The notes beneath the pieces were generated by a model. It worked only from the letters and a program-made list of their open reading frames with translations. It did not search any database and was not told where the DNA came from. A stretch of 64,000 nucleotides of DNA from Eledone cirrhosa (Eukaryota), in contig OZ024746.1 of NCBI GenBank assembly GCA_964016885.1, positions 43,028,001-43,092,000 on the forward strand, given 5' to 3'. Shown here piece after piece: positions 11,781 to 48,388 of this stretch; position 1 is the stretch's first letter, and every line of letters starts with the position of its first letter. The position numbers and the translations under genes were made by a program.

Positions 11781-12125
11781 GGAAGCACATGGCTTAGTGG
11801 TTAGAGCATTGGCCTTGCAATCGAAAGGTTGTGAGTTCAATTCTCAGACCGGGTGATGTGTTGTTTCCTTGAGCAAGACACTTTATTTCACATTGCTCCA
11901 GTTTACTCAGCTGTAGAAATGAGATGATAGGGACTGGGGTCCCTATCAGTCCACTGCAAAGTGGTCGTGGAGGTGCCACGGCAAAAAAGCACCCAGCACT
12001 CACTGTAAATGAGGTTGGTGTTAGGAAGGGCATCCAACTGTAGAAATCAAGCCAGAATCAGTTCCCGTCCCACCCTTGCAAGCAGGGAAAAGTGGACATA
12101 AAATGAAATCATGATGAATGATGAT
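11781..12125 (+). mobile_element. SINE-B: tRNA head + CORE-like domain + RTE-derived body + RTE-a tail
   Basis: A box tggcttagtgg, B box gagttcaattc, CORE-like ccttgagcaagacact...cagtttactcagctgtagaaatg. The last about 40 nt nearly match LINE 11481-11523. Confidence 0.92.
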
Positions 12126-12699
12126 ATATATATACACTCGTTCTCTCTGTTTCTCTTACTTTCTTTCGTCCCCTCTGCCATGTCAGTTAACACTCTCACT
12201 CACTCAGTCCCTGTTTCTCCTCTTCTTTCTTCCTCCCGTTCGCTGTGAAAACGGTTCTCCTTCTTTCTAACACCAAATTCACTAGCGAAAGGTCTGTTTC
12301 TGACTCGCTCATATTTTCACACAGCTTATGCTGAAAGAATAACTATGTTGCTTGTGTTTATTTCCATCTTCGGTTAGCTTCCCCCTGTGTTGTTTACTTG
12401 TCTCACTCGCTTTACGCGTTTCTATTGTCCTAATAACTTATTTTAGTTATTATCGCTCCAACGTGAGGTATATGATTTTTAATGCAATGAAATCCCCATG
12501 ATCGTTTGGTAAATCACTGATGAGGGACTCATTTTATAACATGTTATCCATGTGCAACCAGCAGTATTCTTCTCACCCATATTTTCATATATATATATAT
12601 ATATATCCATTTATATACATATATATTTGACGTTATAGTCACTTATATATTATGAAATACTGTTAGGCTTTTTGCTCATATTAATTTCTATATTTTTAT

Positions 12700-13059
12700 T
12701 TATATATATATATACATATATACGTACATATATACATATATATATATATACACATATATTCATACATATATACATATATAAATACATATATATATACACA
12801 TATATATATATATACATATATATATATATATATACACACATATATACATACATATATACATATATACATAAACACATATATATATACATATACATACATA
12901 TATACACATATATATATACATCTATATATACATATACATACATATATACACATATATATATACATATATATATACATATATATATATATATATATATATA
13001 TATATACATATATACATACATATATACATACATATATATACATATATATACATACATAT
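12700..13059. repeat. Compound (TA/CATA)n microsatellite
   Basis: Direct reading. Confidence 0.98.
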
Positions 13060-13618
13060 GGTGGCTGCCAACTCGTTTTCGAGTACGGCCACTACTTTAT
13101 ATCCATGTAGGAGAACCCCTACCGATGCGCTGAACAAGTGTGACTTTTTAGTCCAGCCAGCGACTTGAAAACTCTGGTACAAACACTACACTTGTGACAA
13201 TTATTGACACATAGTGCTGGGCCCATGGTACCATGTGACGACAAGTGCAGAGAGATCTCCAGATACAAAGCAATGCCTGTGCCGTGAAGCTTTTATAGTG
13301 AGCAAAGGCACTGCACAAAGCCAGTCCCACTCTCTTAACCAAGATGATATTTACCAAAAAGAAGAACAAGTCAACATCATTGGATACCATCAGGGTTGCA
13401 GGTGTTATATCAGAGTTTTCCTTCTCCTAGAATTCTGCCTTGACAAATGCTAAGGGGTCATCTCTCCCGGTGATTTTGGATGGCCATTGACTCTTTAGAT
13501 CTCCTTTGCCCTTTGATAGGTTTTGTTTTTAGTCCTGCAGGATGTCCAAAGTCACCCTCCTCACCAAGAAACCTTGGTGGGGTTGCCAGTTTAGTCGCCA
13601 ACGACCCAACCATGAGAC
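13060..13618 (-). mobile_element. Bipartite non-autonomous RTE derivative (5' UTR fused to C-terminal C2H2 finger and tail)
   Basis: RTE 5' UTR-like ctaggagaaggaaaactctg (13430-13411) and ggcgactaaac. 13211-13119 translates [30 protein letters not shown]. Tail hairpin ctcg-aaaa-cgag; flanked by (TA/CA)n. Confidence 0.7.
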
Positions 13619-13789
13619 ATACATATATACATATATATACATACATATTGCCTTCTATTTCTTCATGTACATGGCAGACGCCCCCCACACACACCCCCAC
13701 CCCCACCACCACCACAGGGTGATGGTGGCAGGAGGGATGAAGAAACACACACACAGATACTTCTAAATTGTCAGCAGCAGCAAAACATA

Positions 13790-14222
13790 AGCTGACCACA
13801 ACACTACCAAAATAAGGGTAGAGGTCAGATGTACTTAACAATAGCAAACACAAACACTACAGGGAGCCTCACCCCAGAAAGAATTTCTATAGACTTTGGA
13901 CTGAGGAATGCTCTCAAAGCTGACCAATGGGAACAGTGACCTTACAAATCTTTATAACATTGAGATGAGTATAAGACACACACACATTTTATTCGATTAT
14001 TTTATTTTATTTTGTTCCTTTACCATCTTATTCCTTCTACCACTTTATCATTTTTTTTAGCTGACTCCAACAACAACACCACTACCAACATAAGAATAGA
14101 GGTCAGATGTACCTAACAATAACAAAAAACAACAACTACAGATTGGCTTGGTTCAGAACGAATTTCTATAGACTTTTGACTGAGGAATGTTCTAACAACT
14201 GACCAATGAGAGAAGAGGCCTT
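13790..14222. repeat. Diverged direct repeat pair of about 150 bp (13790-13943 and 14059-14222)
   Basis: Shared tagaggtcagatgtac.taacaat and gaatttctatagacttt.gactgaggaatg...ctgaccaatg. Confidence 0.85.
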
Positions 14223-45801: not shown

Positions 45802-45907
45802 GACGACTGTCTTTGTAAAACTTGTATTTATGTTTTCCGGAGGTTGGGGAAGCTGGGGATTTTGAATGAAACAGTTCTAGTCCCGTCAAAGACATTTCTA
45901 CATTAAA

Positions 45908-46155
45908 TATGATATATACATATATTTAGATATATATATATATATATATATATATATATATATATATATATACACACATATCTATCTCTTTATATATATA
46001 TATATATATACATATCTATATATATATATATCTATCTATCTATACATATCTATATATATATATATAAATATATACATATCTATCTATATATATACACACA
46101 CACACACACACACACACACACATTATATATATATATATATATATATATATATATA
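45908..46155. repeat. Compound (TA/TCTA/CA)n microsatellite (others at 7955-8128, 36930-37030, 40265-40360, 40527-40630, 60345-60462)
   Basis: Direct reading. Confidence 0.95.
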
Positions 46156-47855
46156 AGCCTCATTGTCATATATTGATTTTATTTCTTTATCATACTTGAG
46201 CATTTATATAATTCATAATTTTAATTCTTATATCATATACTTAACAGTTAATTTAGAATTTTAAAATACTTAAAAGTATAACTTCTCTATTCTAAAATTG
46301 AAACATTTCAGATAAACATCTTGTGATTTATATTACCCGGAAATGTTTTCAAATGTTTTTTTTTTAAAGAAAGGAATAATATATCATATGCTTGGGAGGA
46401 ATGTTTTCAATTGAAAGTTTATAAATATTAATGAGTGAAAGGTATGAACTTTTATCAGATAAACATGTTTTGAAACTGTTAAAAACTTTCTGGGAATTAT
46501 TATTTGTGTTAAAAATTGTTGTAAGATATTTAGCAAAGAAAATCGTGAAAAATAGGTTTATGGGAAGTTATAAGATATTCTTACCCAAAAGACTGTATCA
46601 ATGTATAATTAAGAATATATTTTTTGAAATTATATTTTCTACATGAAAATTATGATGAAAATATTTTGAAATTATTTTCAGACTATCTCCAATTGGGTTT
46701 CATTTTAATCATTTCCCTAGTCATCAGTCTATAACATTTTCAATTAAAATATATAATCTGCTCATAATTATAACCATTGCATATCACTTTAATGAGCCAT
46801 TTCAGAGAGGAACATTTTGATGGACAATGTGAGAAAGAGGAGTTAGTTGCTGTAGATTAATTGAACTACTGACCAAATTTTTGATGTCTTTTATTCATGT
46901 TCATTAATCACTAGGTGCTTTGATTTAATTATATCATATTTCCTTAGAGGACAATTTAATATATTCTTCGTTGTGATTTATAGGTTTCAATGAAATTATC
47001 TTAGCAGAACTGAATATATCAATTTTAATTGCATTTGCAGTAAAAGTAGTTAGATCGAGCTGAAAAATGCTAGTTGGTTTTTCAGGTGTTGCTTTACATC
47101 ATTTTTATATAGTGTTATACAAAGTATATAAAGTTTTAAATGTAACATCATAATTTTTAATGTTTGATAGCAAAGTTTCCACTTATAGTTTTGCTATCTT
47201 ATTATGTTCATAATAAATTCCTGTCATGAAAATTTAAGTTGGAGGAAAAATAAGAGAACCATAATAACTATATTATAAATAGTACTTCATATAATTTTAG
47301 CTAAAGTTTAGCTAAGAAGGATTTTGTAGAGTATGGTGTGAACACATTTTTGATGTACAGCTTTTCATTTTTAAGAAAGTTAATGAATTAAAAGTATTTT
47401 AAAAGTTTCACAAATGATAAGGAATCAAAAGAGAAACAAACACCTGACAAGACAGATAGACAAAAACAACAAATATAATTGAGCATATATGATTTACAAT
47501 TTTGTTAATAATATTTACATTATCAAGAAAGAGAGTGTATGTAATGAAATCACATGTCCAAATATAAATATGTAACATTGTTTTAATTGTGCATGCTTTC
47601 TATGTAATAAATACCCCTAACTGCTTTAAAACCATAAAAGAGTTTAAATAGCAATGCTCCTGTTACATTCTGGATGGCGCCAGTGAGACATAGTTATGCT
47701 AGGGCATCAGTATAAAATATATATAGAAATGAAATGATTCTCCTAGCCAAGGCAGAGTGTTGCCTTGCAGGCCACAAGACAGTCATAGTTATACTTACAG
47801 AGTTTTATTTGAAGCAATGCTTTACACACAGAGGCTTTTTCTAGTACCAATCTAT

Positions 47856-47929
47856 TTTGTCCAGTTTGGAAAAGGTACACCATCTTGCAACATGCAGGAA
47901 GATGGTGTCCCTTTTCCAAACTGGACAAA
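47856..47929. other. 74-nt hairpin (31-bp arms, 1 mismatch, 12-nt loop)
   Basis: tttgtccagtttggaaaaggtacaccatctt / aagatggtgtcccttttccaaactggacaaa. Confidence 0.9.
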
Positions 47930-47995
47930 CACAATATAGTATAAAACATATACACTCACTTATGTGTGTGTGTGTGTGTGTATATATATATATAT

Positions 47996-48388
47996 GGAGG
48001 CACATGGCTTAGTGGTTAGAGCATTAGGCTTGCAATCGAAAGGTTGTGAGTTCAATTCTCAGACTGGGTGATGTGTTATTTCCTTGAGCAAGAGACTTTA
48101 TTTTCACATTGCTCCAGTTTACTCAGCTGTAGAAATGAGATGATAGGACTGGGGTCCCTATCATTACACTGCAAAGTGGTCGTGGAGGTGCCACGGCAAA
48201 AAAAGCAACCAGCGGTCACTGTAAGTGAGGTTGGTGTTAGGAAGGGCATCTAGCTGTAGAAATCAAGCCAGAATCAGTTCCCGTATGAGCAAGACAAGGT
48301 CAGCCGACCGGACTCTGCCCACAACAGGACAACCCATCTAACCTATGCTAGCGTGGAAGAACGGACGTAAAATGGTGATGATGATGAT
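47996..48388 (+). mobile_element. SINE-B with the longer RTE-b-type tail
   Basis: Same head and body up to gaatcagttcccgt, then atgagcaagacaaggtca...cccacaacaggacaaccc...gctagcgtggaagaacggacgtaaaatg, as in LINE 39600-40013. Confidence 0.92.

Follow-up and report, generated by a model that had tools for sequence, protein, structure and literature searches.

The window analysed here is a stretch of 64,000 nucleotides from Eledone cirrhosa (assembly GCA_964016885.1, contig OZ024746.1, forward-strand positions 43,028,001 to 43,092,000). It has a GC content of 32% and belongs to an animal assembly of 3.0 Gb. Two forms of one short interspersed element (SINE) lie in it, along with copies of the long interspersed elements (LINEs) to which their tails are related. 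The short SINE appears to be the first 288 bases of the long SINE followed by the last ~40 nt of the LINE RTE-a, joined at one CCCGT. We regard it as close to certain that the tail came from RTE-a and that the short form is the derived one. The RTE-a tail likely let the short SINE go on spreading while its older helper decayed. Tail exchange is already known in SINEs; what is new here is an unusually well-resolved case at base level.

The form with the RTE-a tail is called the short SINE, and that with the tail of RTE-b subfamily b2 the long SINE. RTE-b is represented by subfamily b1 in the window and by b2 elsewhere, and a third LINE is called RTE-c. The label RTE is taken from a first-pass annotation of the window. 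It is consistent with the architecture of the LINEs, whose best homologues are unnamed, at 48-68%. The repeats of the window presumably resemble octopus repeats. The features are as follows.

9215-11545, plus strand: RTE-a LINE, 5'-truncated, 98.8% to the family consensus; CCCGT at 11481-11485
11781-12125, plus: short SINE, full length, with RTE-a tail, 1.3% from consensus
11790-11847, plus: tRNA-like head of the 11781 SINE, A box at 11790 and B box at 11835 (Rfam RF00005, 28.1 bits, E 0.0006)
11867-11923, plus: CORE-like domain of the 11781 SINE, by its by-eye likeness to the printed CORE of WALLSI2/THER1
11924-11949, plus: 11-bp inverted repeat (hairpin), inherited from a (CA)n-tailed sibling SINE, as judged from sequence and sibling copies
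11951-12068, plus: body from the RTE-b2 3' untranslated region (UTR), containing a module also present in the RTE-a 5' UTR
12064-12068, plus: CCCGT junction, common to both parents
12069-12125, plus: RTE-a 3' hairpin and (ATG)n-type tail of the 11781 SINE
23500-23868, minus: short SINE with clipped 5' end and internal duplication of a 49-nt unit; CCCGT at 23550-23554
30784-31118, plus: short SINE, 3.6% from consensus; CCCGT at 31066-31070
31200-32447, minus: 3' part of RTE-c, with the 3' UTR module in tandem and a homologous hairpin
39600-40013, minus: 3' fragment of RTE-b1, without CCCGT; b1 is a cousin of b2, the donor subfamily
47996-48388, plus: long SINE, carrying the RTE-b2 3' UTR to its end; first CCCGT at 48280-48284
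48333-48337, plus: second CCCGT site of the 47996 long SINE, decayed to CCCAT
56200-56431, minus: older SINE with related head and CORE and a different body

The four SINE copies have the head, the CORE-like part and the body in common as far as GAATCA(G/A)TTCCCGT, as the first-pass annotation had read them. The CCCGT lies at 12064, 23550 (minus strand), 31066 and 48280, and in RTE-a at 11481. Beyond it, the copies at 11781, 23500 and 30784 continue as the end of RTE-a, with 29/29, 33/34 and 38/39 identical positions. The consensus bodies of the two forms, each the majority of the 30 best genome matches, differ at 3 of 288 positions, and divergence starts directly after CCCGT. Exact 23-letter junction patterns match the genome 28,815 times for the short form and 6,329 times for the long form, and the reversed control patterns do not match at all. 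A set of 48 long-junction matches, inspected in context, comprised 24 copies of RTE-b itself, 18 elements with a SINE head and 6 truncated ones. About half of the long-junction matches are thus RTE-b, so the number of long SINEs is well under 6,329. An assembly artefact, or a few local chimeras, can be practically dismissed given the number of short-junction matches. The same junction is also present in the contigs of all four independent public runs, which depart from the long form at base 48284 and then read the RTE-a tail.

RTE-a-type tails were collected from all retrieved loci, minus the hits on which the searches were centred. Among these 84 unselected tails, 54 sit on a SINE body and 23 on RTE-a, and 7 are truncated. 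The CCCGT register is kept in 53 of the 54 tails on a SINE body, and the remaining one is preceded by long-tail letters. This is a single breakpoint, not the scatter among copies that the annotation had named as a sign against exchange. None of the 84 is attached to any other SINE family, which speaks against a tail acquired from another SINE. Microhomology of at least 5 nt exists at 96 of 14,280 possible junctions (0.7%).

The direction of the exchange can be read from a third, sibling SINE found at four loci (L074, L248, L256, L262). Its head and 11-bp hairpin are those of the other two forms, its tail is unrelated and ends in (CA)n, and target duplications are visible; no partner LINE for it was found in the retrieved loci. 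Older relatives also combine the 11-bp hairpin with a (CA)n-type tail, so the sibling is usable as an outgroup. Its state at position 33 (4/4) is present in 12/15 long and 6/37 short copies, its state at position 66 (4/4) in 7/16 and 1/42, and its state at position 150 (3/4) in 14/21 and 7/43. In all, outgroup states at positions 2, 33, 66 and 150 are more frequent in the long form, and position 112 is derived in both. Since the long form has kept more of these states, it gave rise to the short form. Divergence over the whole element agrees with the direction proposed by the annotation. In copies not chosen by similarity, it is 2.4% in the short form (n = 45) and 3.7% in the long form (n = 21; p = 0.0004), and 11/45 short copies but 0/21 long copies are below 1.5%. 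The contrast is conservative, because most long copies were picked by exact patterns, which favours young ones. The short form is thus younger and commoner than the long form, and the RTE-a lineage is older than the short form: RTE-a2 ends, at 5.3% divergence, leave no support for a tailed form older than its LINE.

RTE-a is a young LINE whose 40 best genome matches are at 99%. Its open reading frame (ORF) of 1022 amino acids (aa) contains PF03372, PF00078 and PF00628 (endonuclease, reverse transcriptase (RT) and PHD) and reaches TAA at 11516-11518, directly followed by (ATG)n. Exact matches to its 3' end number 8,594 genome-wide. Thirty pattern-picked ends comprise 18 of subfamily a1 (1.9% non-CpG divergence) and 12 of a2 (the 5.3% above, also non-CpG), with an identical tail in both. 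Open frames of more than 1000 aa are kept in 13 of 19 long RTE-a copies, and nearest-neighbour distances among the 19 are 0-0.14%. In 20 long RTE-b copies, the longest open frame is at most 695 aa and nearest neighbours are at least 2.3% apart. Seventeen of these are b2-type (2.1-5.7% from consensus) and three b1-type (10-11%), and none of the 20 is below 2%. The RTE-a and RTE-b proteins are 67% identical over 744 aa, and that of RTE-c is 79% identical to RTE-b and 62% to RTE-a. Both RTE-a and RTE-b have the RTE-type architecture, namely a single ORF with AP-like endonuclease and RT and a short 3' end with a microsatellite.

The donor of the long tail lies outside the window. The annotation had matched the 47996 copy to the piece at 39600-40013, but this b1 piece is only 84.5% identical to the SINE over 194 nt, reads CAGTTCCAT and lacks CCCGT. 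The copy does continue as a LINE 3' UTR, that of subfamily b2, which is found elsewhere in the genome and matches the long SINE from position 171 on (47/47 and 202/209 identical, flanking one collapsed 49-nt unit). Both products and RTE-a therefore lie in the window, as had been claimed of all parties, but its RTE-b copy is not of the donor subfamily. Among 30 b2 copies in LINE context, 28 have a clear and 2 a damaged long tail, and none has an RTE-a tail. The swap therefore occurred in the SINE and not first in the LINE; one apparent case of the latter is a short SINE inserted into an RTE-b2 copy.

A one-step RT template switch, most likely made once, is the likeliest origin of the short form, at about even odds. 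The RTE-a RT would have copied the hairpin of its own RNA and then jumped onto the RNA of a long SINE. The jump would have been aided by five perfect bases inside a longer imperfect match, which extends upstream of the junction (12/16 with the older RTE-a2 end, 11/16 with a1), and by pausing of the RT at the hairpin foot. The new tail would have made the RTE-a protein the mobiliser, and the short form would have continued to spread once RTE-b2 and the long form had faded, at ~2% divergence. The first-pass annotation had also proposed an RT switch at 5 nt of homology. This reading is partly supported: the shared CCCGT stands, but two other routes give the same junction. The second CCCGT of the long tail and the longer imperfect match with the RTE-a2 end had been overlooked.

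The junction is the foot of a terminal hairpin, which is kept whole. In the alignment of window tails, the inner helix is paired in 8/8, the outer helix in 70% of cells and the whole structure in 85%. Covariation in the hairpin was matched in 2 of 500 shuffles, a control that the relatedness of the tails inflates. Folding z-scores of single tails are weak (-0.9 to -1.3), and the hairpin rests on the alignment. The tails of RTE-a and RTE-b are homologous hairpins: after its second CCCGT, the long tail is collinear with the RTE-a end, identical at 26/34 positions and different at 8/34. Retention of the hairpin may reflect selection instead of mechanism.

Several points weigh against a single switch at this site followed by a change of partner. 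It would be one historical event, and its junction is identical for an RNA template switch and for joining at the DNA level. The in-register site, with 7 perfect nt and ~80% identity around them, offers better homology than the site used. In an earlier swap, by which the (CA)n tail of the sibling gave way to the RTE-b2 UTR, 0-1 nt are shared at the breakpoint, at the 3' foot of the 11-bp hairpin, so homology is not required. The age ranges overlap, with short copies up to 5.5% and long copies down to 1.6%, and at non-CpG positions of the head and shared body the difference is 2.0% versus 2.8% (p = 0.056). Short copies carry ancestral and derived head states in mixed combinations, for which later recombination or more than one origin is needed; these combinations point to continued exchange between masters. 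The RTE-b sample goes back to a query from the old b1 subfamily and could have missed a small, young branch of RTE-b, and the unlike ages of the RTE-a and RTE-b queries favour the contrast between intact and decayed copies. Copies adjoining TA runs are no more frequent in one form than in the other (21/59 vs 16/35, p = 0.39), and insertion-site preference was accordingly rejected as a marker of the partner. Finally, both intermediates of a two-step route exist.

This route uses the two CCCGT repeats of the long consensus, at 284 and, 53 nt downstream, at 337. An in-register exchange of the hairpin from RTE-b to RTE-a type would be combined, in either order, with a deletion of the 53 nt; the deletion by itself yields the length of the short form and not its sequence. 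The second CCCGT site (337) is in fact the longest exact match to RTE-a that keeps the hairpin. Genome-wide, the pattern for the deletion alone has 3 matches, of which 2 are true (L111 and L113, the latter in LINE context) and 1 is an unrelated RTE-c. That for the long SINE with RTE-a tail has 5, of which 2 are true (L154, L158) and 3 (L155-157) belong to the short form but have letters of the long tail where the two parts join, like the one exceptional unselected tail. Both half-steps occur, rarely, and neither has been amplified: they are singletons, not subfamilies. However, two true intermediates of each kind face ~35,000 junction matches, and they could also form later by recombination between existing forms. 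Two rare events in one master are required as well, and we consider this route unlikely.

In a third route, a severely 5'-truncated RTE-a inserted into a genomic long SINE between CCCGT and ATG, and the locus became a master. The 5' end would be joined by microhomology, and the (ATG)n tail primed on the following ATG. Solo truncated tails of at most 40 nt are common (7/84), and the target does continue with ATG, the tail repeat. Truncated long tails are joined at few shared bases to the ATG runs of other elements in 4/4 places, and RTE 3' repeats correlate with target choice according to PMC6007223. On the other side, none of four exact-match candidates is a founder locus, although target duplication or decay would hide a founder from the pattern. 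The usual targets are TA or ATG runs and not SINE interiors. Insertion into a long SINE is thus quite improbable as the origin.

For the preferred template switch, as for either of these routes, it is a separate matter whether the partner changed with the tail. That mobilisation truly changed hands seems probable; we put it no higher because the hairpins are homologous and the insertion contexts alike. The alternative, which concerns function and is compatible with any of the three joining routes, is that the proteins of RTE-a, RTE-b and RTE-c all accept this hairpin class and that the short form won by its length or a better master locus. In its favour, the tails are homologous and collinear and fold into one hairpin type (inner helix 8/8), both forms share one insertion context, and long SINE copies, at 3.7% and reaching 1.6%, are not older than RTE-b2 copies. 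However, the long form and RTE-b come to an end at nearly the same divergence even though RTE-a and its near-identical copies continue, and LINE proteins only 67% identical speak against shared recognition. We hold such relaxed recognition to be somewhat unlikely. The overall picture is one of RTE-b and the long SINE fading near 2% divergence and of RTE-a and the short SINE continuing.

The two swaps may also form a series of hops in one genome, from the (CA)n form to the RTE-b2 3' UTR and on to the hairpin of RTE-a. Each time the cut would fall where an RNA hairpin has its foot, and the last hop would be timed to the decay of RTE-b. This reading is tentative. If true, it would be a dated, base-resolved case of structure-guided tail capture rescuing a SINE from the extinction of its partner, with the living LINE at hand.

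Survival of SINEs by a change of tail is a standing proposal, drawn mostly from old, family-level comparisons. Template switching to the dominant LINE has been put forward as such a route (Nishihara 2016, PMC4824008; echoed by Martelossi 2024, PMC11481361), and module shuffling is described in molluscs (PMC4758252). In the cases of PMC4824008 and PMC11481361, as here, the same head and domain bear different LINE tails. Those comparisons are at family level and across clades (L2, CR1, Nimb), whereas the present case lies within one genome and within RTE, and age profiles are available for SINEs and LINEs alike. Kojima 2018 (PMC5786205) reports tail exchange, with replacement by another RTE among the cases, for the Ceph-SINE IdioSINE2, ERE4B and WALLSI2. 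Those events are old, and their donor LINEs are either distant or unknown. In contrast, the two SINE forms are found here together with the two LINE families and the exact junction, at less than 5% divergence, and the SINE body derives from the 3' UTR of a LINE and not directly from a 5' UTR. The sequences of the two products, the two donor families, an outgroup and a few rare by-products are all young enough to be read, and intact copies of the new partner exist. Two questions thereby become testable: does exchanging tails between related LINEs change the mobiliser, and is the switch point set by homology or by RNA structure?

In class, the SINE appears to be tRNA-headed and CORE-like, and it is not filed as a Ceph-SINE. 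The two forms, of ~325 and ~380 nt, are short, non-coding, dispersed and of high copy number. The Rfam score of the head is slightly below the 29-bit gathering score, ARAGORN found no true tRNA, and the A and B boxes of the head were assigned by the box consensus. A 3' end in common with a LINE and a terminal simple repeat agree with a tRNA-derived SINE. Non-repetitive target duplications of at least 7 nt were seen in 0/21 long and 0/23 short copies, in a test that excluded the TA runs where many copies sit. The CORE-like domain was compared by eye with the CORE in the supplement of PMC5786205 and has one mismatch in the conserved heptamer. The body module is 83% identical to the RTE-a 5' UTR over 53 nt. 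In Ceph-SINEs as described by Kojima 2018, a CORE remnant precedes a conserved domain of RTE 5'-UTR origin. Motifs of the present module were not found in that paper's supplement, and the OegopSINE body printed there looks different. Ohshima and Okada reportedly described the octopus SINEs OR1, OR2 and OK in 1994.

No published description of this SINE family or junction was found, although one may be contained in Repbase, Dfam, Ohshima and Okada 1994 or the supplements not searched (PMC9115989 files 5-8, PMC4824008 file 1). PMC4824008 counts OR1 among the CORE-SINEs, as one from octopus. Most recently active SINE families of Octopus vulgaris are given as unclassified in PMC13282606. RTE-2_OV of the same species (Petrosino 2022, PMC9115989) is described as having the layout of RTE-a: one ORF, encoding endonuclease, RT and a zinc finger, continues straight into a microsatellite. 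Its ORF has 1109 aa against 1022 aa in RTE-a. The two are likened by description, as a search of the supplement files, all but 4 of them, did not find the sequence of RTE-2_OV.

Several further observations concern the LINEs. In the RTE-a ORF of the window (9776-11518), the PHD finger follows the RT, and the stop codon lies within the terminal recognition hairpin region, so that coding and RNA structure overlap. The module just before the ORF in the RTE-a 5' UTR is found in the 3' UTRs of RTE-b and RTE-c as tandem units (39720-39840, minus; 31310-31570, minus; L093:600-665). It is missing from the ~420-530 nt common upstream of the ORF in 3/3 RTE-b2 copies (L339-L341). This placement may possibly go back to a LINE that took up the 3' half of a SINE-like element of two parts. 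Full-length RTE-a copies (L309-L313) have a 5' UTR of more than 1.2 kb, mostly microsatellite-like sequence common to the copies, and 5' inversions are present in the RTE-a copies L107 and L336.

Other observations concern tails, hairpins and neighbouring repeats. More RTE-related ends with the same hairpin class lie at 48405-48595, 23917-24345 and 8151-8488, the first beginning 17 nt past the long SINE. Mutual insertion into ATG/CAT tails, tail-to-tail or head-to-tail, is frequent (L179, L244, L323, L337, L343-L346). The perfect 11-bp inverted repeat at 11924-11949 has its 4-nt loop flipped in 2/95 copies (L097, L179), as template switching across a palindrome predicts. Another abundant repeat family of ~190 nt, with at least 8 copies at 84-97% identity, occurs in the window at 2203-2398, 6950-7143, 41950-42138, 50037-50214, 57659-58098, 61568-61722 and 62924-63112.

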